Assembly: GCA_965219955.1 (NCBI GenBank)
Contig: OZ244799.1
Coordinates: 1,344,001-1,408,000, forward strand
DNA from: a bacterium
Lineage (GTDB): Bacteria; UBA8248
DNA: 64,000 nucleotides
Direction of reading: 5' to 3'
Positions 20,250 to 30,578 of this stretch are shown piece after piece. The notes beneath the pieces are model-generated. The model was given only the letters and a program-made list of their open reading frames with translations, ran no database searches and had not been told where the DNA came from. Position 1 is the stretch's first letter; each line of letters opens with the position of its first letter. Made by a program: the position numbers and the translations under genes.

Positions 20250-20990
20250 TTATCGCTGGCCGTTATGAGCCGGCATTTGTATAACTTCGACATTCGGCGG
20301 CACGACAAACTGAAATTTCTCTCCTGCAATTCTGACGTTTTCTTCGACATCAGAAAACCGCAGGTGGCTTTTATTGCCGATGTTGTCAATATAGGCCAAG
20401 GTGAGGATTCTGAAATTCTCAGGGTCCACCTCGACCCACATTCGGCGAAACGAGGCGCCCGCGGCCTTAGGCTCCAAACGAATGCGATGAGGCTGACCAG
20501 CCTTCCAGATTCCCCCGCTTCGCCTGGCAACGCCAATTTCTTCTACGGTTACATGAAAATTCTTTTTCAAATTCCCCTTGCCCGACAAGAATAACAAAGG
20601 AGTCGCACCAAACCCAGAGCCTCCGGTTTCGGAAACAATCACCTGCTTGAAGCGGACCGTGTAGAGCCAATACTTGCGGCCATCAGAGACCAGAACCTGC
20701 TTTTCAGGCTTGACGTACTCCATGCGCAATTTGCCGGGCTTCTTCCACGCGAAAAGCCCGCTCGACGTCGTTGTTCGTCCAAGGGATTTCAATTCATTTT
20801 TCTGCTCGAAAGAGGCTTGCAGGGATTCCAGGGCCTCATATTTTTCCTGGAGCGTCGTGACTATTTTCTCCATTTTCAGACGCGATTCTTCCGCCACAGG
20901 CGCGCCAGATGCGCGCCCTTGCGAATACGCGAGAAACGAAAAAAGAAATACCAGTATCAGGAAACTCGATTTGCGCAAAACTCTCTTCAT
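20250..20990 (-). CDS. lolA: outer-membrane lipoprotein carrier LolA-family protein
   Basis: Signal peptide from ATG 20990. ASFEQ, KKPGKLRMEY, VSDG, C-terminal F-F-PPNVEVI. Confidence 0.88.
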   Translation of the reverse strand: MKRVLRKSSFLILVFLFSFLAYSQGRASGAPVAEESRLKMEKIVTTLQEKYEALESLQASFEQKNELKSLGRTTTSSGLFAWKKPGKLRMEYVKPEKQVLVSDGRKYWLYTVRFKQVIVSETGGSGFGATPLLFLSGKGNLKKNFHVTVEEIGVARRSGGIWKAGQPHRIRLEPKAAGASFRRMWVEVDPENFRILTLAYIDNIGNKSHLRFSDVEENVRIAGEKFQFVVPPNVEVIQMPAHNGQR

Positions 20991-21003
20991 CCTCTGTGGA
21001 TAA

Positions 21004-21657
21004 CTACTCCGAAACGGGCGAGATGAAACCGCGCTGTTCCGCAAGAGCGTCTCCTGCATATTGCACAGTGCCATCAATACAGCGAACACTTCCCTCGGCG
21101 ATGAGCCGCACCGCCAACGGGTATATGCGGTGCTCATAAACGAGAATCCTCTCCGAAAGGGTATTCTCATCGTCATGAGGCAGCACCGGCACAGCGGCTT
21201 GTAAAATGATCGGCCCCGTATCCACCCCCTCGTCCACGAAGTGGACCGTGCAGCCGGCCACCCTCACGCCGGCGTCCAGCGCTTTTTTCTGTGCATGCAG
21301 GCCCGGGAAACTCGGCAGAAGCGAGGGGTGAATGTTGATGATTCTCCCTGCAAAACGGCTCACGAAATCCGGCGGCAAAATACGCATAAAACCAGCGCAA
21401 CAGATGAGGTCGATTTCGCAATTTTCGATTTCATCTCCCATCCGCAGAAAAAAAGCATCGTCCTTGGGCGCGAAGTGTCTGTGTCTTATTCCAGCCTTCG
21501 AGGCGCGCTCGAGAGCATACGCATTTCTTCTGTCACTCAGCACCAGCACAACTTCCGCCGGAAAACCCGTTTTCCGCCCGGCATCGATGAGGGCCTGCAG
21601 ATTCGACCCGCGCCCCGAGGCCAAAACACCCACCCGTAATTGTGCTCTTGCGTTCAC
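21004..21657 (-). CDS. purN: phosphoribosylglycinamide formyltransferase
   Basis: ASGRGSNLQAL, AGFMRIL, NIHPSLLP, GCTVHFVDEGVDTGPII. Confidence 0.97.
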   Translation of the reverse strand: MNARAQLRVGVLASGRGSNLQALIDAGRKTGFPAEVVLVLSDRRNAYALERASKAGIRHRHFAPKDDAFFLRMGDEIENCEIDLICCAGFMRILPPDFVSRFAGRIINIHPSLLPSFPGLHAQKKALDAGVRVAGCTVHFVDEGVDTGPIILQAAVPVLPHDDENTLSERILVYEHRIYPLAVRLIAEGSVRCIDGTVQYAGDALAEQRGFISPVSE

Positions 21658-21660
21658 GAT

Positions 21661-22713
21661 TTATATGCTTTCAATGACGACGGAATGACCATCCTTTGTT
21701 CTTGGGGCGACTTCGCCGACAACCATGGCCTGTTCTCCGGCATTTCTCAAACATTCGAGCAAATATCCCGCTCGCTCGGCCCTCGCGAGGAAGACAAAAC
21801 CCAGGCCCATATTAAAAGTGCGATACATCTCCGCGCTCTCAACCGGACCGAGCTCTTGAATCAACGGAAATATCTCCGGCATCTCCCACTTTTCCGGATA
21901 GAATTTCGCCTGCAATCCATCCGGCACCACACGGCTCACATTTCCCGGAATGCCGCCTCCCGTGATGTGCGCGGCGCCGCTTATCCCCTCTTCTCCTCGA
22001 ACAGAGCCAGCTCCATTGGCGTAAATCCGGGTCGGCTCCAATAAGACATTTTCAACAGGAACACCCAGCCTTTCCGCCGCAAAATCCCGTTTTCCTTCTG
22101 ACTCGAATATCTTCCGCACCAGAGAATACCCGTTGCTATGAATTCCTGAAGAAGGCAGTGCGAGTATGGCGTCGCCGGCTTTCACAGGCGGCCTGTCGTC
22201 CAATTTCCTGCGTTCAACCACCCCTACCGCAAAACCAGCGAGATCGTAAACGCCCGGTCCATACATGTCGGGCATCTCCGCCGTCTCACCACCGATGAGG
22301 GCGCAACCTGCCTCCCGGCAACCCTGGGCGATTCCGGATACGGCTGCCTTCAATACGTTTTGATCGATCCTGCCCGTCGCGATGTAGTCGAGAAAAAAAA
22401 GGGGTTCTGCTCCCGTGGTCAGGATGTCGTTGACGCACATGGCCACCAGGTCAATCCCAACGGAATCATGGCGCTCGAACTCCTGGGCCAGGAGCAACTT
22501 CGTGCCGACGCCGTCGGTGCCTGAAACGAGTACGGGATCCTCATATTCGCCACCCAGGCGGAACAAACCCGCAAAATCAGCCGACCCCTTCAGGATACGA
22601 CCGCTTTGGCTGTCATGGGTAGATGCAACAGCCTGGGCGATGGCGTGAACGAAGTCATCTCCCGAGTGCACATCGACACCTGCGTCGCGGTATGTCAGAC
22701 GATCCTCATTCAA
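21661..22713 (-). CDS. purM: phosphoribosylformylglycinamidine cyclo-ligase
   Basis: YRDAGVD, TDGVGTK, GGETAEMP, HSNGYSL, HITGGG, TFNMG. Confidence 0.97.
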   Translation of the reverse strand: MNEDRLTYRDAGVDVHSGDDFVHAIAQAVASTHDSQSGRILKGSADFAGLFRLGGEYEDPVLVSGTDGVGTKLLLAQEFERHDSVGIDLVAMCVNDILTTGAEPLFFLDYIATGRIDQNVLKAAVSGIAQGCREAGCALIGGETAEMPDMYGPGVYDLAGFAVGVVERRKLDDRPPVKAGDAILALPSSGIHSNGYSLVRKIFESEGKRDFAAERLGVPVENVLLEPTRIYANGAGSVRGEEGISGAAHITGGGIPGNVSRVVPDGLQAKFYPEKWEMPEIFPLIQELGPVESAEMYRTFNMGLGFVFLARAERAGYLLECLRNAGEQAMVVGEVAPRTKDGHSVVIESI

Positions 22714-22764
22714 AAGTGATGTTCCATGATTTAGCAGGCGGAATCGCTCGGGATGAACTCAAAA

Positions 22765-24897
22765 TCAGCCGTGGACTTCCATCAGCTTCTTGACCAAAGC
22801 CACATTGTGCCGGTGACCACTTCTCTCGGCGGTCACTTTCCCCCGGATAGGACGACCGGTTAAATACAGGTCTCCGATAACGTCAAGAATTTTATGTCGA
22901 ACGAACTCATTGGGAAATCGCAGTTGGGTATTCACGACACGCGCCTTGTCCACAAGAATCACGTTATCCCAACGCCCCCCCTCGGCCAGGCCCATTTTCT
23001 CGAGCGACTCCAGCTCAGAAACAAAACCAAACGTACGAGCGGGCGCGATTTCTTCCTGGAAACTCAAGGCATTCTTATGTTCGTAGAGGTAGGATTGTTT
23101 TCCAATCGGCTCAGGATAATCGATGAGGTAGGAAACCGAAAAAGAATCCGCCGGCTCTATACGAATATACCCCTTCTCGTCGGCCGGCTCGCCGATTTCG
23201 TAAACCTTGTCAACCCACAAGTCTTCGCGTTTTTCCTTTTGATCCTCGATACCCGCTTCTTCGAGCAAGCGGCAAAACTCGACTGCCGATCCATCCATGA
23301 CGGGCACTTCCTCGCTCATCTTGATGAGTATATTGCTAATCTTATACGCGTGCAGCGCGCTCATGAGATGCTCTATCGTTCGAGCCGTCACGGCCCCATT
23401 GCGCAAGTTCGTCGCATGGTTGGTGCCATCCACGGAATCGACATTCGCCCTCACAATATCGGGGCTCGTCAGGCTGCCGAACTGAATCCCGCTCCCCGGC
23501 GACAAGGGTTCAATGATCAATCCCGTTTTCAGCCCCGAGTGAAGCCCCCGGCCATACAACACGACACTCTTCGAAATACTCCTTTGACTTGTTTCCCTAA
23601 GCGTCGCTGAAGCCGGCAATACGGGCTCTATATCGTATGCTTTTATTTTTCGCTTTAAGGCAGGCTTCGTCATGCCTACAGCCTGGGCGGTTTTGTTGAT
23701 ATCCCAACCGTGCTCTTCCAAATGGAAGGACAGGTACTTTCTCTCCCATTGGGTTCTGGCCACATTGAAATGAGACGGGACGTCGTCTCTCGATGTGTCC
23801 GCTTCGAAATCAGAAGCTTCGCGTATCGCGTACGGCAAGTGGGCGATTTGAATCTCCGCTCCTTGTGATGCATATGCCGCTTTGGTCACTGCGCCTTTCA
23901 GTTCAGCTATATTGCCCGGCCAGTCATAGTCTTCAAGTAATGCAATGACATCCTCTGAAAATTTCTTCTCATACCTGCCAATTTCCGTGCATTCATTCAA
24001 AAATCTGTTGGCTAACGGGAGAATGTCCTCTTTTCGTTCGCGCAAAGAGGGCAAATTTATTACATCGGCGCCTATCTGGGTGGACAAGGCCCGTACGTAA
24101 GCCTTGTCTTTCGGGGTCCCCATGTGATCAAGAGATACCACCAAACGTATTGAATCCGTTGCATGCCCAAGGAACCGAGCGAGAAACCCCTCACGCTCGG
24201 CCATGGGCAACTGCTCCAGACCATCAAGATATACCGTCCCCTGAAAGGTGCCGGGCACCAGCCGCTCCAGCGTCTCTTCCCATTCGCCTGCCTCAGCCAC
24301 CGGAAACAGCGAGCGGCAATGAACCGGCCTGAAGCCTTCCTCTTCACTGATGCCGTTCTTATGAATCATCCTCGCTATAAAACGCTTGCCGGTTCCCCTT
24401 TCGCCCGCGATCAGCAAGGGGCCAATATCTTTCGCCGCTCTCCTGATAGCTCTTCGAACCCTTTGGATACCCTTGCTGGCGCCGTCAAGCATTACATCAA
24501 AGACATCACTTACCTTGGGCTCCTTGGCCCTTCGCGCTTGAACAGCGGAATCGACTATACGCAAAACCGCATCGATGGACAGGGGTTTTTCAATGAAATT
24601 GAAAGCTCCCAACTTGGTTGCGGCCACGGCGGTTTCAATATTGCCGTGGCCCGACATCACGACGACTTCGATATCCGCGTTCGACTCTTTCACCGCTTGC
24701 AGGGTCTTGATTCCATCAATGCCCGGCATCCACACGTCGACCAAAACCACATCAGGAGTTTCAGTTCGAACCAGCTTCAGGGCAGTTTCTCCAGACTCGG
24801 CCCGCTCTACACGATACCCTTCATCGTGCAAAACGTCTTCCAGGCTGGCGAGTATCTCGCGCTCATCATCGACGATGAGGACATGTCCCTTATCCAA
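22765..24897 (-). CDS. lpxC: fusion: NtrX-like response regulator (REC - degenerate AAA+ - Fis HTH) + UDP-3-O-acyl-GlcNAc deacetylase LpxC
   Basis: N-terminal REC (IVDDE, DVWMPGIDG, SGHG, EKP), GERGTGK, WPGNIAEL and HTH. From about aa 438: QRSI...GRGLHSG, TIEHLMSAL, EVPVMDGSA, IAPARTFGF, RHKILDVIGDL, SGHRHN. Confidence 0.93.
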   Translation of the reverse strand: MDKGHVLIVDDEREILASLEDVLHDEGYRVERAESGETALKLVRTETPDVVLVDVWMPGIDGIKTLQAVKESNADIEVVVMSGHGNIETAVAATKLGAFNFIEKPLSIDAVLRIVDSAVQARRAKEPKVSDVFDVMLDGASKGIQRVRRAIRRAAKDIGPLLIAGERGTGKRFIARMIHKNGISEEEGFRPVHCRSLFPVAEAGEWEETLERLVPGTFQGTVYLDGLEQLPMAEREGFLARFLGHATDSIRLVVSLDHMGTPKDKAYVRALSTQIGADVINLPSLRERKEDILPLANRFLNECTEIGRYEKKFSEDVIALLEDYDWPGNIAELKGAVTKAAYASQGAEIQIAHLPYAIREASDFEADTSRDDVPSHFNVARTQWERKYLSFHLEEHGWDINKTAQAVGMTKPALKRKIKAYDIEPVLPASATLRETSQRSISKSVVLYGRGLHSGLKTGLIIEPLSPGSGIQFGSLTSPDIVRANVDSVDGTNHATNLRNGAVTARTIEHLMSALHAYKISNILIKMSEEVPVMDGSAVEFCRLLEEAGIEDQKEKREDLWVDKVYEIGEPADEKGYIRIEPADSFSVSYLIDYPEPIGKQSYLYEHKNALSFQEEIAPARTFGFVSELESLEKMGLAEGGRWDNVILVDKARVVNTQLRFPNEFVRHKILDVIGDLYLTGRPIRGKVTAERSGHRHNVALVKKLMEVHG

Positions 24898-27154
24898 TGG
24901 AAGCCGTCCTTTGCTTTTCAGGCGTGATGTCCGCAGCAGGCGCCAATGGCAACGTTACGCGAAAAACAGAACCCGCGGGATAGTTGTCTCGCACGCCTAT
25001 CGTTCCATTATGGTCCGCCACGATGCGATGACATATAGCCAAACCCAACCCCGAGCCTCTGTCTTTCGTAGAAAAATAAGGAGAGAATATATGGCCTTTC
25101 ACATCTTCCGATATACCCTGCCCCTGGTCGGCAACTTCAATAACTATCATATTTCTGTCCGTATCGCTCCATGCCTGCAAATTTATCTCGCCTTCGACCT
25201 CCTGGGATTCAAAGGCGTTTTCCAGCAAATTGATGAACACGCGCTGCAACTGCTCGGGATCCGCCATGATCGCTGCATTCCCTGCAGTGATTTGAATGGA
25301 AAATTTCACATTCCCTTTTCTGCCGCGATATAAATTCGCAACATCTTCGATGAGGGGAGCAAACCCGCAAAGCCTCAGTCTCGGCTCCGGCATTCGCGCG
25401 AATCGGCTGAATTCATTCACCATTTCAATCAGACTCGTTACCTGGTTGATAATGGTGTCCGTGCAAGATTCAAATACTTCCGCAAAATCATAGGCTTCAC
25501 TTTCAAATTTTCTTCTCATTCTCTGGGCAGAGAGTTGAATCGGCGTAAGCGGATTTTTGATCTCATGCGCGATGCCGCGAGCCACTTCCTGCCATGCGGC
25601 CACTTTCTGAGCCCGTATCAAAGCCGTCATATCATCAAACACAATGACTGCTCCGAGCCTGCCACCATCCGCGCTTTTGAGCAGGGTCAAACTCGCGCGC
25701 AGCGTCAGTACGCGGCCATCAATCATGATCTCCACTTGCTCCGAAGCGCTCTGGTGTTTTCGATCCCTCATGGAACGCATCAGATGACGGACGGGTTCGA
25801 GATGCGCGCTTTCGAAAACCTCGCTGAACATTCGACCCACGGCATCTTGAGGCTCAATGCTCAGCAACTCCCCGGCCGCTTTGTTGAGAATGGTAACGCG
25901 CCCCCGGCGATTGATTGATATCACACCAGCTCCGATATTTTCGAGCATCGCTTCCATATACCTGCGTCTTCTGTCGATTTCCAGGTTGGAATGGCTCAAG
26001 ATTTCAGAGGATTCTTCGATTTTCTCTTTATTGGCCAACAATTCTTCCGTCATGCTGTTGAATGCGTTGACCAGAATCCCCACTTCCCCGTCTGCCTGCG
26101 CATCCACGCGATGTTCGAGATCGCCATCCGACACCGCCCTTGTGGCTTCCGCCAATTTCTCGATGGGAACCGTAATCCCGCGCGCGAGGTAGAAGCCAAA
26201 CCATATGGCCGCAAAGAGAATGAGCAAAGTGACCACCAAAAAGGTGATGATGTAGTTTGCCTTGATTGGATCCTTGGACAGTTCCAACTCCTTATAACTC
26301 ACGAAGGAGTCCGATATGTCTTTGATCTTCTCCACGAGCCTGTCCGAAACATATTTGGATACGACGACAAACCCCACTACTTTCTTTTGAACCTTCAAAG
26401 GCGCCACGCCATAGATGACATCACCCTTTTCCCAATTCTCTATACTTGAGCGCGCCCCCCCATCAATCACCTGATCCACGTATCCCGCCAGTGGGGAGAA
26501 TGTCGCGGCTCGTTCCAACCCCGGACGTTTGACCGATACGATCTCTTTTCGGTCTCTATCGTAGAGTTGGATGAAGTCTACCCCTAAGCTCTTTCTCTCG
26601 GATTCCAGTTTTTTTTCAATCGCCTCAGGGTTCGCTAACGTGTCGGAGTGCGACTTCTCCAACACAAGCGCCAGTCGACTCGCACTGAACAGCGCGTTTC
26701 GCTCCACCTCCCGATAATACGTCTGAGCCACCTCGAACGACCCTTTGAGCGCTCTCTCCACATTCATGTTGAACAAGGCGTTAAAGCTCTGGTTTATCAA
26801 GCCGCTGGCGACCACAAAAAGAGCCACCACAGGGATGAGCGTGAATCCCACAAAAGCCAACACAAGCTTCAATTGCAAGCGTGAACGGCCGGCGCCCGTT
26901 CTCCCCTCGTAGTAAAGACGCACCAGGTGCTTTGCCACCAAAAGAAGAACCACCATGAGCAGAATGATGCTCAGGTTCACAAGCGCAAATACAACGACGT
27001 TGTTAAGCAGGGGGACTCCCGGCTCAAGCTCCTTGAAGTAAATCCAGGCCGTGAACGAGAGAGTCGCAATGACGATCAAAGCGATGAAAGAGCGCAGAAG
27101 CGTTCTTCGTCGACGGGAAGAGATTTCCAGGTTTTTCAGTCGCTTTGGATACAA
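24890..27154 (-). CDS. NtrY-like sensor histidine kinase (TM - periplasmic - HAMP - PAS - HisKA - HATPase)
   Basis: Multiple N-terminal TMs, HAMP (PIEKLAEAT...FNSMT), AAWQEVARGIAHEIKNPLTPIQLSA, DQGQGI, GSGLGL. 8-nt overlap with the regulator gene. Confidence 0.93.
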   Translation of the reverse strand: MYPKRLKNLEISSRRRRTLLRSFIALIVIATLSFTAWIYFKELEPGVPLLNNVVVFALVNLSIILLMVVLLLVAKHLVRLYYEGRTGAGRSRLQLKLVLAFVGFTLIPVVALFVVASGLINQSFNALFNMNVERALKGSFEVAQTYYREVERNALFSASRLALVLEKSHSDTLANPEAIEKKLESERKSLGVDFIQLYDRDRKEIVSVKRPGLERAATFSPLAGYVDQVIDGGARSSIENWEKGDVIYGVAPLKVQKKVVGFVVVSKYVSDRLVEKIKDISDSFVSYKELELSKDPIKANYIITFLVVTLLILFAAIWFGFYLARGITVPIEKLAEATRAVSDGDLEHRVDAQADGEVGILVNAFNSMTEELLANKEKIEESSEILSHSNLEIDRRRRYMEAMLENIGAGVISINRRGRVTILNKAAGELLSIEPQDAVGRMFSEVFESAHLEPVRHLMRSMRDRKHQSASEQVEIMIDGRVLTLRASLTLLKSADGGRLGAVIVFDDMTALIRAQKVAAWQEVARGIAHEIKNPLTPIQLSAQRMRRKFESEAYDFAEVFESCTDTIINQVTSLIEMVNEFSRFARMPEPRLRLCGFAPLIEDVANLYRGRKGNVKFSIQITAGNAAIMADPEQLQRVFINLLENAFESQEVEGEINLQAWSDTDRNMIVIEVADQGQGISEDVKGHIFSPYFSTKDRGSGLGLAICHRIVADHNGTIGVRDNYPAGSVFRVTLPLAPAADITPEKQRTASIG

Positions 27155-27157
27155 AAT

Positions 27158-27763
27158 TCACATTCCTTTAGAACTGAACGTCCGGGAATAGCTCCAATCA
27201 GAATTCTTCCCCCAAAAAGCGAGCAAATAATTAAAGGGAAAAACAAAATCCACCTGATTCAATCGCGCCCTGATTTTGACATAATATCGACCATTGAGGG
27301 ACAGGGCCTCGCCAGACAGAATGGGCGCGCCATTCAATTCACGCATCCAGTCCATCATTTCGTCCTGGCTTTTCGTCACTTTTCTTTCAATGTCTTTCGC
27401 GCCTTCTTTGAGATGAAAGGTGTATGTTTTTTTCAAGGCGCTATATTTCACCTGATGATGCAATTGCCGCGCAGCGACTTCCAGATCATAGATTAGCTTG
27501 CGAGAGCGGAGGAGACTGACATCAAAGATAAACTTCGTGGTCACACCGCTATGGATGGCTTCCAGGAGCTTTGGCGAAAACGCGCCCAAAAGAGAACCAA
27601 AAACGAGCAACTCCCCTTTCTTTTCAACGACGACGATATCCCGTATTCGAATTCCGCCCTGGTCATCCGTTGCGGACAGCGCCGGCCCCGCCAGAAAGAA
27701 GAGCACACAAATGGCCATGCTCAGTTTTCTCAGAACAAATGTTTTCTGGAAGTTAGACAACAT
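27158..27763 (-). CDS. secreted/periplasmic DUF4390-like protein
   Basis: Signal peptide, EAIHSGV...F.F, YYVKIRARL, FPF...SDW. Directly upstream of the NtrY-like kinase, where DUF4390 genes usually sit. Confidence 0.75.
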   Translation of the reverse strand: MLSNFQKTFVLRKLSMAICVLFFLAGPALSATDDQGGIRIRDIVVVEKKGELLVFGSLLGAFSPKLLEAIHSGVTTKFIFDVSLLRSRKLIYDLEVAARQLHHQVKYSALKKTYTFHLKEGAKDIERKVTKSQDEMMDWMRELNGAPILSGEALSLNGRYYVKIRARLNQVDFVFPFNYLLAFWGKNSDWSYSRTFSSKGM

Positions 27764-27788
27764 ATGTTCTCCTTGGCCCTTAAGTTCA

Positions 27789-27817
27789 ATGCTACCGCAT
27801 ACAACAAAAGCTCTCAA
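27789..27817 (-). promoter_or_regulatory. sigma-70-like promoter for DUF4390-ntrY-ntrX::lpxC
   Basis: TTGAGA-N17-TAGCAT, about 25 nt upstream of the ATG at 27763. Confidence 0.45.
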
Positions 27818-27881: not shown

Positions 27882-30578
27882 CTACGTCCATTTTTTCCCC
27901 TGTTCAACGTTTTCCATGCTCTTTCGGAGTTCATACAGGGTTTCGAGTGCCTGGCGAGGGGTAATGGAATCCAGATCCAGGCCTTTCAACACCTCCTCGA
28001 CTTGCGATTCCGCACGTGAAAACAATGGCAGTTGCCCGTTTTCCCGGCGATTTTCCAGAAAAGATTCTTGTCCTCCGGAGCACGACATGGCCTCCGCACT
28101 CTCGAACCTGGAGAGCAAAGCCTTCGCCCGGTCGATAACCTCTTCCGGAAGTCCCGCCAACCTGCCTACATGAATGCCGTAGCTTCTGTCGCAACTGCCA
28201 TCGGTTACTTTTCGTAAAAAAACGATTTCATCACCCCATTCCCGCACTTCGACCGTTAAGTTTTTCACACAGGCGAGTTCTTTCGAGAGTTCGGCCAACT
28301 CATGATAATGGGTTGCGAACAAGGTCCTCGCCCTGTGGCGGACCTCATTATGCAGATACTCTACGATTGACCAGGCGATGCTCACGCCATCGTAGGTGCT
28401 CGTGCCTCGCCCGACTTCGTCGAGAACGATGAAACTCCGCTGCGTCGACTCTCTCAATATGGTGGCCGTCTCCACCATCTCGACCATGAAGGTGCTTTGC
28501 CCTTCCATAAGTCGATCATGCGCGCCGACGCGAGTGAACACCCTGTCAACCAAACCGATTTCCGCACTCCTGGCGGGTACGAAGCTGCCGATTTGCGCCA
28601 TCAGAATGATGAGCGCCGATTGACGCAGATACGTGGATTTCCCGGCCATATTCGGCCCTGTGACGATAAGTATTCGGCGGTCATCGCGAATCGACAAATC
28701 GTTCGGCACGAAAGAGACACCAGGATTCTCCGCCTCCATGACGGGATGCCTGCCCTCGATGATTTCAAGATTCGTGGAATCCGTAATTCGGGGCCTCACG
28801 TATCCATTTTTGCGCGCGACGAGCGCCAGGGACAAAACAGCGTCAAGAATCGCTATTCTCTCCGCGGCGGCGAGTATGCGCCTGGCCTGTTGAGATATTT
28901 GCGTTCGCAAGCGCCCGAAGAGCATGAACTCGAGATGATGGGCTTTCTCCTCTGCGCCAAGGATGTCCTCTTCCATCTTCTTCAACTCGGAAGTGATATA
29001 GCGCTCGGCAGAAACCAACGTCTGCTTGCGCGTATATTCTGTCGGCACCTGCTCGCTGAAGCGTTTGGCAATTTCGAGATAATACCCAAAAACACGATTA
29101 AACCCGATTTTCAAAGGCAGCCCCGTTCGTTGCTTTTCCTTGCTTTCATAATTTTTCAGCCAGGTATCGCCCTCTTGCTGCGCCCTTCTCAATGTAGAGA
29201 GTTCCTGATCGTGCTCAGCGCGAAACATTCCTCCTTCACGAATCGAAACAGGCGGATCGTCCACAATCGCGTTCTTCAGTTCCAATGCCACGTCCTCGAG
29301 AGAATCCCACCCCGACAAGACGGTATGAAACAACCCGGAATCCGCCTCCTTTATTGCCTCACAAACCTCTGGCAACATTCCCAGGGAAGCGCCGAGCCCC
29401 GCCAGGTCCCGGGCGTTCGCCGTTTGAGAACCCACGCGACCCAGGAGCCTTTCGATATCCTGAATGGGTTCAAGGGCATTTTTGAGCATATTCAGGGTTT
29501 CGGACTTATCCACGAGTTCCTGTACCGATTCGGCGCGATAATCGATGGCTTTTTTTTCAATCAAGGGTGAAAGGACCCATTTTTTCAACAGGCGTCCCCC
29601 CATGCCTGTCTGCGTCTCATCCAGCAAGCCAAGCAAAGTGCCTTTTTTCCCACGGTCCACAGCGGAACGAGTGAGTTCCAGATTTCGTAACGTGGCGGCA
29701 TCGAGAATCATGGTGTCAGAGAGCCGGGAGAAAAACACGGGTTTGATGTGGGGAAAATCACCAGGCTGGTTTTCTTTGAGATACGCCAAAACACCTACCG
29801 CGGTGTTCACCGCCACCGGATTCGCCAGAACATCCGCTTCATCCGGAAAGACGGCGTCCAGGCTTTTGAAATCAAGCGGCTCATCAAAGGTGGCGGCCGG
29901 TCTTTTCTCAACATGAACATTCAGTTCACCGATTTTGCTTTTCAACTCACCAGGCGGAGAAAAACCATCCGGCAAGATGACTTCACGAGGAGAGAGCCTC
30001 TCCAACTGGTTGCAAACAAGCGTCTCGGCGGCATCGCCTTCCACCTGTGTCGCGCAAAACTCACCGGTCGAGCTATCGAGCCATGCCATTCCCCAAGCCG
30101 TCTTTCCTTCTCCGGCCGACAGGGTGATCCCCGCCAGGTATTGAGACTCCTTGCTATCCAGTAACTCGAGGCCGGCAATCGAGGTGCCCGGAGTGAGGAC
30201 GCGGGTCACTTCGCGTCTCACAACTCCACTGCTTTCTCCCGCATCTTCCACCTGCTCGCATATGGCGACTTTATAACCTGCCTCCAGCAATCGCCCGCAA
30301 TAGGAGGATGCCGAATGACAAGGCACGCCACACATCGGGATAGGCCCCTTGTCGTCACTCTGGCGCGACGTCAACGTGAGTTCCAGCACTTTCGCCCCGA
30401 GTTTCGCGTCTTCATAAAACATCTCGAAAAAATCACCCAGCTGAAAAAACAGCATCGCGTCCGGATAGCGTCTTTTCATTTCCAGGTATTGGCGCATCGC
30501 AGGTGATGGACCACGTCTTTTATTACCCGATGTATTTTTCGCTTTCCTGGCATGCAGAGTGCTTTTTGGGGGAGGCAT
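27882..30578 (-). CDS. mutS: DNA mismatch repair protein
   Basis: GDFFEMF, GRHPV, TGPNMAGKST, STFMVEM, DEVGRGTS, FATHYHEL. Confidence 0.98.
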   Translation of the reverse strand: MPPPKSTLHARKAKNTSGNKRRGPSPAMRQYLEMKRRYPDAMLFFQLGDFFEMFYEDAKLGAKVLELTLTSRQSDDKGPIPMCGVPCHSASSYCGRLLEAGYKVAICEQVEDAGESSGVVRREVTRVLTPGTSIAGLELLDSKESQYLAGITLSAGEGKTAWGMAWLDSSTGEFCATQVEGDAAETLVCNQLERLSPREVILPDGFSPPGELKSKIGELNVHVEKRPAATFDEPLDFKSLDAVFPDEADVLANPVAVNTAVGVLAYLKENQPGDFPHIKPVFFSRLSDTMILDAATLRNLELTRSAVDRGKKGTLLGLLDETQTGMGGRLLKKWVLSPLIEKKAIDYRAESVQELVDKSETLNMLKNALEPIQDIERLLGRVGSQTANARDLAGLGASLGMLPEVCEAIKEADSGLFHTVLSGWDSLEDVALELKNAIVDDPPVSIREGGMFRAEHDQELSTLRRAQQEGDTWLKNYESKEKQRTGLPLKIGFNRVFGYYLEIAKRFSEQVPTEYTRKQTLVSAERYITSELKKMEEDILGAEEKAHHLEFMLFGRLRTQISQQARRILAAAERIAILDAVLSLALVARKNGYVRPRITDSTNLEIIEGRHPVMEAENPGVSFVPNDLSIRDDRRILIVTGPNMAGKSTYLRQSALIILMAQIGSFVPARSAEIGLVDRVFTRVGAHDRLMEGQSTFMVEMVETATILRESTQRSFIVLDEVGRGTSTYDGVSIAWSIVEYLHNEVRHRARTLFATHYHELAELSKELACVKNLTVEVREWGDEIVFLRKVTDGSCDRSYGIHVGRLAGLPEEVIDRAKALLSRFESAEAMSCSGGQESFLENRRENGQLPLFSRAESQVEEVLKGLDLDSITPRQALETLYELRKSMENVEQGKKWT

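Follow-up and report, generated by a model that had tools for sequence, protein, structure and literature searches.

An apparently ancient fusion of an NtrX-type response regulator to LpxC, encoded beside an NtrY-type kinase and a DUF4390 protein

The fusion gene and its locus

The 64,000-nucleotide stretch of DNA considered here (the window: positions 1,344,001 to 1,408,000 of contig OZ244799.1 in the GenBank assembly GCA_965219955.1, from a bacterium of the lineage UBA8248) carries on its minus strand, like all the other features described below, a gene of 710 codons with a TTG start (22765..24897). In this gene, a response-regulator receiver (REC), a degenerate AAA+ core, a Fis-type helix-turn-helix (HTH), a linker and a complete LpxC, the committed enzyme of lipid A synthesis, which catalyses the flux-setting step of lipopolysaccharide (LPS) synthesis and is a long-pursued antibiotic target, are joined in a single polypeptide. 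To judge from the sequences compared, this is a genuine and ancient gene fusion that provides the only LpxC of the organism, catalytically intact as far as its residues tell. The gene adjoins those of an NtrY-type sensor histidine kinase and a DUF4390 protein.

The open reading frame (ORF) list, Pfam and NCBIfam agree on the order of domains within one ORF of 710 codons, which a first-pass annotation of the window, made from the letters alone, had already proposed. The receiver (Response_reg, residues 6-114, 24556..24882; Pfam 6.5e-30) contains D10, D11, the phospho-acceptor D54, S82 and K104, and thus the acidic pocket, the phospho-Asp, the Ser and the Lys of the earlier description, and its sequence can be aligned to the receiver domains of both Brucella NtrX (5m7n) and the NtrC-family regulator 4l4u. 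The degenerate AAA+ core and its lid follow (residues 139-367, 23797..24483; Sigma54_activ_2 at 139-285 and AAA_lid_14 at 286-367), and then the HTH (HTH_8, residues 383-421, 23635..23751), which Pfam recognizes with 22.9 bits against a cut-off of 22. A linker of residues 422-437 (23587..23634), with AlphaFold2 pLDDT values below 50 at 427-432, leads to the LpxC domain (residues 438-706, 22780..23586; Pfam 7.7e-83), which covers profile positions 1-267 of 268 and leaves only 4 residues before the C-terminus of the protein. Between M409, inside the HTH, and M513 the translation has neither a stop nor a Met, again in line with the first reading. An internal start that would free LpxC is unlikely: an AAGGAG lies in the Q-R-S codons at the beginning of LpxC, but the next in-frame GTG and TTG codons are 16-19 nt downstream and sit inside the first LpxC strand, and the aligned relatives share neither a Met nor any other start at the junction.

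The enzyme half is a full-length LpxC, with 278.5 bits for PF03331 (cut-off 27) and 238.8 bits for TIGR00325 (cut-off 187.25). Its motifs TIEH, ARTFGF, HKILDVIGD and SGH align with the structures of Pseudomonas aeruginosa LpxC, in such a way that E509/H510, T622/F623, H668/K669/D672/D676 and H695 match the catalytic and zinc residues of the solved enzyme; among these are the E/H of TIEH, the residues of HKILDVIGD and the H of SGH to which the first-pass annotation had drawn attention. Across the 85 fused rows of the alignment, seven of the nine are conserved in 84-85; at T622, 81 rows have T and 4 have S, and at F623, 80 have F and 5 have Y. In E. coli LpxC, the zinc ligands and catalytic residues that correspond to E509, H510, T622, H668, D672 and H695 are E78, H79, T191, H238, D242 and H265. 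At these six sites, two alignments, one of 19 and one of 81 sequences, show no variation. E78, T191 and H265 are named in the available text of a 2026 review on LpxC control (PMC13333357).

The fusion is also the only LpxC match in the one-contig genome of 4.28 Mb, a point on which the first-pass annotation had advised a check. LpxD, LpxB and LpxK were found about 1 Mb from the fusion locus. Since these enzymes are present and the fusion is the sole LpxC, lipid A is presumably made and the fused enzyme should be active, probably as a deacetylase acting on UDP-3-O-acyl-GlcNAc. The same status extends through the phylum, which is Nitrospinota/Nitrospinae by the record names of the relatives and was sampled in 51 genomes. 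A single LpxC locus occurs in 50 of them, fused (open frame >400 aa) wherever the contig allows, and in 3 of the 50 genomes there are two LpxC matches, both parts of a single gene that a contig end or a frameshift divides. Four families of the phylum contain stop-free full-length fusion matches, the most distant at 43% identity. The one remaining genome (G003, same class, 93% complete) gives no LpxC or fusion match, which could reflect either an assembly gap or a real loss. In a same-genus genome of 8 Mb (L120, G029:C19:26000-43000), the fusion, ntrY and purM each lie in 2-3 overlapping frame pieces and LpxC appears as two matches, and these pieces may be due to sequencing-error frameshifts or to a decaying copy.

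The junction between the two halves, whose integrity the first reading had left to be verified, is free of stops and frameshifts in independent assemblies. Contigs from a sponge metagenome and a marine metagenome, obtained in two other studies, span positions 22700-24950 whole and gap-free, differing from the window by 4 and 6 substitutions. Moreover, contigs from an RNA library, in which carry-over of DNA is possible, cross the junction between HTH and LpxC without gaps (23416-23647 and 23595-23813).

The fusion gene overlaps the ntrY-like gene (24890..27154) by 8 nt, as originally described, the TTG start being at 24897 and the TAA of ntrY at 24892-24890, and an AAGGA stands 9 nt upstream of the TTG. 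The kinase, of 754 aa, combines the NtrY_N membrane region of Pfam (28.8 bits against a cut-off of 23.2) with HAMP, PAS, HisKA and HATPase_c domains. Before it lies the DUF4390 (PlrP-like) gene (27158..27817; Pfam 9.6e-28), whose ORF ends 3 nt ahead of ntrY and whose likelier start is the ATG at 27763 behind an AAGGAG. With this start, the product would have a hydrophobic N-terminus ending in ALSA which, judged by eye, points to an exported protein. The candidate promoter that the first-pass annotation had placed here did not stand up: the promoter-like TTGAGA-17-TAGCAT upstream of the probable DUF4390 start (27789..27817) is not above chance, and a motif scan over 11 kb returned 3 sites against 6.8 expected from shuffles. 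The same scan found no terminator-like site convincingly parting the genes of the locus.

Three neighbours are conserved in synteny, namely mutS upstream (27882..30578; Pfam MutS domains I-V) and a purM-like gene (21661-22713; AIRS and AIRS_C) and a purN-like gene (21004-21657; Formyl_trans_N) downstream. A gene of the LolA family of outer-membrane lipoprotein carriers (20250-21176; Pfam 4.5e-26) closes the same-strand run mutS-DUF4390-ntrY-fusion-purM-purN-lolA and represents the second envelope gene in the array; as listed, its ORF overlaps purN, and its true start is probably further in.

Relatives of the fusion and loss of the DNA-binding part

Local domain profiles divide the collected sequences into 122 REC-AAA/HTH-LpxC proteins (long forms), 91 REC-LpxC proteins (short forms) and 22 N-truncated pieces. 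In a large protein collection, the fused proteins are of ~700-745 aa and reach down to ~48% identity, and the shorter REC-LpxC form is of ~430-460 aa. Among representatives at 50% identity, about 43 of the best 150 LpxC matches carry an N-terminal extension and fill nearly all of the first 45 ranks, the ordinary LpxCs coming below ~220 bits. The first-pass annotation had considered that relatives might always encode the two parts separately; instead, the fusion occurs across this phylum and in others. By record names, its carriers belong to Nitrospinota, 'Tectomicrobia', Thermodesulfobacteriota (Desulfomonile, Syntrophorhabdus, Desulfocapsaceae and, in a record title, the cultured Desulfopila sp. 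IMCC35006, which has the short form), metagenome-assembled genomes (MAGs) labelled 'Deltaproteobacteria', Acidobacteriota (Thermoanaerobaculia, Holophagae and Aminicenantes), Nitrospirota (Thermodesulfovibrionia), Spirochaetota and one MAG labelled Pseudomonadota. Public annotations name the fusion protein either LpxC or NtrX. Some loci depart from the common pattern, e.g., one of Holophagales in which part of a kinase and an additional receiver precede REC-LpxC (L032), one of Thermoanaerobaculia with a second partial LpxC-like stretch ~1 kb downstream of REC-LpxC (L024), and one of Thermodesulfobacteriota whose receiver is out of frame with the AAA/HTH-LpxC part, owing to a frameshift or a contig error (L021).

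In a FastTree of 178 LpxC domains, unrooted and with local support values instead of bootstrap, a branch with 99% local support separates 85 fused and 5 extension-less rows from 87 unfused rows and 1 unclassified row, a split that fits one old fusion event. The extension-less rows (P0263, P0275, P0280, P0282 and P0349) are of 283-292 aa and represent truncated gene calls or a secondary separation from the receiver. When shorter proteins were searched for near relatives without a fusion, most of the matches proved to be parts of fused proteins cut off by the ends of contigs. Moreover, eleven LpxC positions (residues 446-657) discriminate fused from unfused LpxCs, such as G459, present in 99% of the fused and 2% of the unfused proteins, C542 (95% versus 9%) and K526 (99% versus 2%), the last involving a charge reversal, since the unfused proteins mostly have E. 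These positions could mark a surface that is used only in the fused state.

The regulator half is of NtrX type. Its residues 5-421 align end to end with residues 5-452 of Brucella NtrX (5m7n; E 2e-46), with the HTH matching the C-terminal HTH of that chain up to residue 452 of 454, and the NtrX equivalog model NF051870 is the top-scoring NCBIfam model over residues 5-421, with 244.1 bits and below its cut-off of 600. The architecture corresponds as well, comprising a receiver, an AAA+ domain without the sigma-54 contact loop, a Fis-type HTH and an adjoining NtrY-type kinase. The protein does not qualify as a sigma-54 enhancer-binding protein of the NtrC family, which would have a GAFTGA loop and a complete AAA+ core able to hydrolyse ATP, with D-E at Walker B: a GAFTGA-like motif is found in 0 of 116 long forms, and Sigma54_activat matches only profile positions 3-61 of 168. 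In the AAA+ core, Walker A (GERGTGK) is intact and Walker B has D-G in place of D-E. All 70 long forms compared show the Walker A pattern G..G.GK, and at position 226, the site of the Walker B glutamate, G, S, A and D are the commonest residues and together account for 65 of the 70. Judging by these motifs, nucleotide binding may survive, and hydrolysis and sigma-54 contact have very likely been lost. The spacer between the last HTH helix and LpxC (K418-Q438) is constrained in length to 15-20 residues in all 70 long forms.

In the receivers of 168 fused relatives, D54 is found in 166, K104 in 167 and S/T82 in 168, and D10 and D11 are likewise each kept in 166-168 proteins, short forms included. 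A receiver that is joined to an enzyme and retains its whole phospho-acceptor pocket, as this one does, is what is expected of a response regulator with enzymatic output.

The fate of the DNA-binding part was followed by mapping the proteins of the window onto 16 loci from 16 genomes of the phylum. The order mutS-(DUF4390)-ntrY-[fusion]-purM-purN recurs in 15 of 15 intact loci, with long and short forms alike, and NtrY is directly upstream of the fusion in all 15; the sixteenth locus is frameshifted. In the 8 loci with short forms, no AAA+ or HTH match is left, NtrY adjoins the fusion in 8 of 8 and DUF4390 is present in 6, the contigs of the other two ending inside ntrY. A same-genus short form of 458 aa matches residues 1-128 (74%) and 399-710 (75%) of the protein in the window, and its residues 150-458, which correspond to 399-710, still include LRQKIKAYDIE as a relic of the last HTH helix. 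By this comparison, it is the product of an in-frame deletion of ~270 residues (about 129-398). The short forms of the phylum nest among its long forms in the LpxC tree. At the base of the whole fused clade, only short forms are found. Within this phylum, the synteny and the remnant of the HTH show a deletion that led from long to short. In one family (L113-L117), 3 of 4 long-form loci (G001, G004 and G007) have no detectable DUF4390 between mutS and ntrY, and the fourth (G005) has one; the periplasmic partner seems dispensable in some lineages.

A comparable association exists without fusion. The same homology search that gathered the fused relatives yielded 49 loci with an unfused NtrX-like regulator, in which a full-length NtrY-like gene is directly upstream in 39 and a DUF4390 gene is present in 16. 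In 19 of the 49, a free lpxC on the same strand heads the cluster lpxC-(DUF4390)-ntrY-ntrX, and 6 of the 10 best-scoring unfused loci belong to these 19. The LpxCs of these clusters are not sisters of the fused clade, as they group among ordinary unfused LpxCs in the tree. Gene neighbourhood and gene fusion tie LpxC independently to the NtrY/DUF4390 signalling module.

Candidate routes from the receiver to LpxC

The reading favoured here, with a probability of roughly 0.45, is that signalling acts on the enzyme after translation. DUF4390 and NtrY would sense the state of the envelope or periplasm, NtrY would set the phosphorylation of D54 in the receiver, and the state of the receiver would alter the catalytic output of the tethered LpxC, for instance by a CheB-like occlusion and release or by receiver-driven pairing. 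Lipid A flux would then be gated at the enzyme and not only through transcription. The strongest argument comes from the lineages that have lost DNA binding. As the HTH is gone in the short forms, the output of the kinase there can only be the enzyme, or nothing, and the retention of the receiver, the kinase and mostly DUF4390 after this loss suggests that LpxC itself is the target of the signal. The proposal that a signal from DUF4390 and NtrY reaches LpxC, already raised in the first-pass annotation, appears strengthened by the short forms accompanied by NtrY and by the unfused clusters. The conserved catalytic and receiver residues and the near absence of a C-terminal tail in fused LpxCs also speak for it, and published precedents are the D. 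vulgaris regulator DVU2934, the raised lpxC mRNA of R. sphaeroides lacking NtrYX and the modulation of LpxC activity by LapB and P. aeruginosa MurA, all taken up below.

Several observations weigh against this reading. Firstly, phosphotransfer from NtrY, the effect on catalysis and the direction of this effect are steps that we infer from sequence comparison. Secondly, LpxC works as a monomer, so that a receiver-driven dimerization would be without obvious catalytic logic. Thirdly, AlphaFold2 predicts confident domains and low-confidence linkers with no sign of fixed packing between domains: the long form reaches a pTM of 0.45, with pLDDT below 50 at 127-135, 364-375 and 427-432, and the same-genus short form a pTM of 0.68, with a 48-residue linker at pLDDT ~30. 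When REC (1-128) and LpxC (434-710) were predicted as a complex from an alignment of 81 rows, the ipSAE values were 0.01 and 0.02, an outcome that counts neither for nor against a contact. In addition, the fused side of the tree, with 90 rows in all, includes 5 without the N-terminal extension. Finally, in Rhodobacter sphaeroides without NtrYX, lpxC mRNA is 8.8-fold up and LPS increases, according to the available text of the study (PMC7240162). This effect is transcriptional and indirect and, thus, the ancestral link may be purely transcriptional.

The nearest rival of a receiver-controlled activity is a receiver that sets the amount of LpxC and not its rate. In such a mechanism, phosphorylation would expose or hide a degradation or localization signal, as in RssB, and would replace the FtsH/LapB route. 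Several features of the family are in keeping with it. The C-terminal end of E. coli LpxC is reportedly needed for degradation by FtsH, to go by the title of a 2006 paper by Fuhrer et al., and the fused LpxCs are without a C-terminal tail, the median being 3 residues (n=202) against 9 in unfused LpxCs (n=156, upper quartile 28). The genome holds no LapB above the cut-off of NF008757, a narrow model that exceeded its cut-off only in E. coli among 14 controls; the profile search found generic repeat-type matches, the best with 31 bits against a cut-off of 363. Moreover, the long, basic and low-confidence linkers of the short forms could be accessible to proteases, and E. coli LpxC is governed mainly through its amount, as stated in the available text of two sources (PMC3333781, PMC13333357). 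On the other hand, none of the 16 syntenic loci has a protease or adaptor gene linked to it, and no degron is identifiable in the sequence. The comparative data fit control of amount and control of activity equally; as an explanation of the receiver, control of amount is nevertheless considered unlikely.

Somewhat more doubtful is the absence of any post-translational coupling, in which an NtrX-type transcription factor would simply carry its target enzyme, the fusion would ensure co-expression only, and the receiver would regulate DNA binding alone. Such an arrangement would agree with the HTH and the length-constrained tether of the long form, with the lack of packing between domains in the AlphaFold2 models and, according to the available text of PMC3333781, with the homologous circuit of Desulfovibrio vulgaris, which acts on lpxC transcription. 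However, several lineages have deleted the AAA+ and HTH regions and yet keep an intact receiver, NtrY and mostly DUF4390. The near-complete retention of the phospho-site in the fused proteins, short forms among them (166-168 of 168), speaks against it in the same sense, since a receiver without output should decay.

A reversed flow of information, with LpxC as a ligand sensor whose occupancy by substrate or product would influence how the NtrX part binds DNA, the enzyme doubling as the metabolite sensor of a transcription factor, had been offered as an option in the first-pass annotation and has lost ground, the HTH being dispensable in several lineages. The short and fixed HTH-LpxC tether of the long forms would permit a coupling of this kind. 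Nevertheless, the idea is inapplicable to the 91 REC-LpxC sequences and leaves the retention of receiver, kinase and DUF4390 in the short forms unexplained, which makes it improbable. Least of all can the fusion be taken for an artefact of assembly or sequencing, or for a recent pseudo-fusion produced by loss of a stop codon in one genome. Nothing was found in favour of this: the gap-free agreement of independent assemblies, the stop-free full-length matches in most genomes of the phylum, even at 43% identity, and the abundance of fused proteins of ~700-745 aa in the large protein collection make this a negligible prospect.

Relation to known systems and significance

The closest known relatives of the regulatory part are NtrY/NtrX systems, including Bordetella PlrS/PlrR with PlrP, which have in common with this locus the gene order DUF4390-ntrY-ntrX and a kinase composed of NtrY_N, HAMP, PAS, HisKA and HATPase_c. 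Brucella NtrX (5m7n/5m7o/5m7p) resembles the regulator half from end to end and also lacks the GAFTGA loop, whereas the fusion protein differs from it in carrying a whole LpxC at its C-terminus, in a shortened AAA+ core and in a Walker B motif without glutamate. The likeness to the three-part PlrP-PlrS-PlrR systems lies in the place of the DUF4390 gene, immediately 5' of that for the kinase, and in its product, whose export is predicted by eye. In those systems, DUF4390/PlrP is a periplasmic third component of the NtrYX-family PlrSR that restrains the phosphatase activity of the kinase, as described in the available text of the PlrP paper (PMC13001219), in which LpxC is mentioned 0 times.

A dedicated two-component circuit aimed at lpxC has a precedent in D. 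vulgaris. In the available text of PMC3333781, lpxC is the single DNA target of DVU2934, the regulator of the system DVU2931/DVU2934, and in Syntrophobacter fumaroxidans lpxC is directly upstream of the orthologous regulator operon, an arrangement that matches the 19 of 49 unfused clusters. In contrast to the fusion, that circuit operates by transcriptional control and through separate proteins, and DVU2934 is likened here to the N-terminal half by its published description only. The known modes of LpxC control, i.e., proteolysis through FtsH/LapB/YejM and inhibition by LapB in E. coli, and stimulation by MurA in P. aeruginosa, also offer a partial parallel, in that protein partners (LapB and P. 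aeruginosa MurA) modulate LpxC activity, as the available portion of the 2026 review reports (PMC13333357). Here, the regulator is covalently attached and a member of a phosphorelay, the C-terminal tail is missing, and LapB does not exceed the cut-off of its narrow model. In its available text, that review contains zero occurrences of 'response regulator', 'two-component', 'fusion' or 'fused' (PMC13333357).

Natural fusion of LpxC to a second domain is known from LpxC-FabZ (NCBIfam NF009667), for which the LpxC part described here scores 211 bits against a cut-off of 465. There, the partner is metabolic and placed at the C-terminus of LpxC, while the partner here is a signalling one at the N-terminus. 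As for response regulators with enzymatic outputs, in CheB, PleD/WspR and RpfG the receiver is flexibly linked to an enzyme domain, and the same logic is proposed for REC-LpxC, above all for its short forms. The fusion differs from them in its output, as no regulator of this kind acting through a lipid A enzyme was found, and no docking of the receiver on LpxC is predicted. In the open-access literature and bioRxiv, no paper describing a REC-LpxC fusion was found, as the first-pass annotation had anticipated in stating that it knew of no functional characterization. Thus, as far as these searches reach, the fusion is real, conserved and apparently undescribed, and it would be classed among the response regulators with an enzymatic output and represent a new way of controlling LpxC. 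The present analysis adds the sole-LpxC status throughout the phylum, the syntenic in-frame deletions with a relic of the HTH, and the unfused lpxC-DUF4390-ntrY-ntrX cluster.

Taken together, these observations allow a broader interpretation, which is advanced tentatively and with the odds somewhat against it. DUF4390, NtrY and REC would form a dedicated envelope-sensing phosphorelay directly targeting LpxC, the first two-component gating of LpxC itself, and this would be the ancestral LpxC control in a broad range of diderms outside the proteobacteria, which by record names takes in Nitrospinota, Acidobacteriota, Thermodesulfobacteriota, Nitrospirota and Spirochaetota. The transcriptional version, represented by lpxC-DUF4390-ntrY-ntrX and DVU2934, and the covalent version would be two states of one circuit, and NtrYX systems would be at root sensors of lipid A/LPS homeostasis.

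The known controls of LpxC come from a few proteobacteria. A receiver on the sole LpxC of the cell, encoded beside a kinase and a periplasmic partner, provides a directly testable hypothesis for a signal-dependent control of outer-membrane lipids, for which the fusion protein is a ready-made reagent in a single polypeptide, open to phosphomimetic and non-phosphorylatable variants, and the deacetylase assay is established. Moreover, the fused and the unfused arrangement jointly hint at what is monitored by the NtrYX/PlrSR/DUF4390 systems, which are poorly understood. For the bacteria that carry the fusion, the arrangement suggests an envelope sensor that acts as a direct switch of outer-membrane synthesis.

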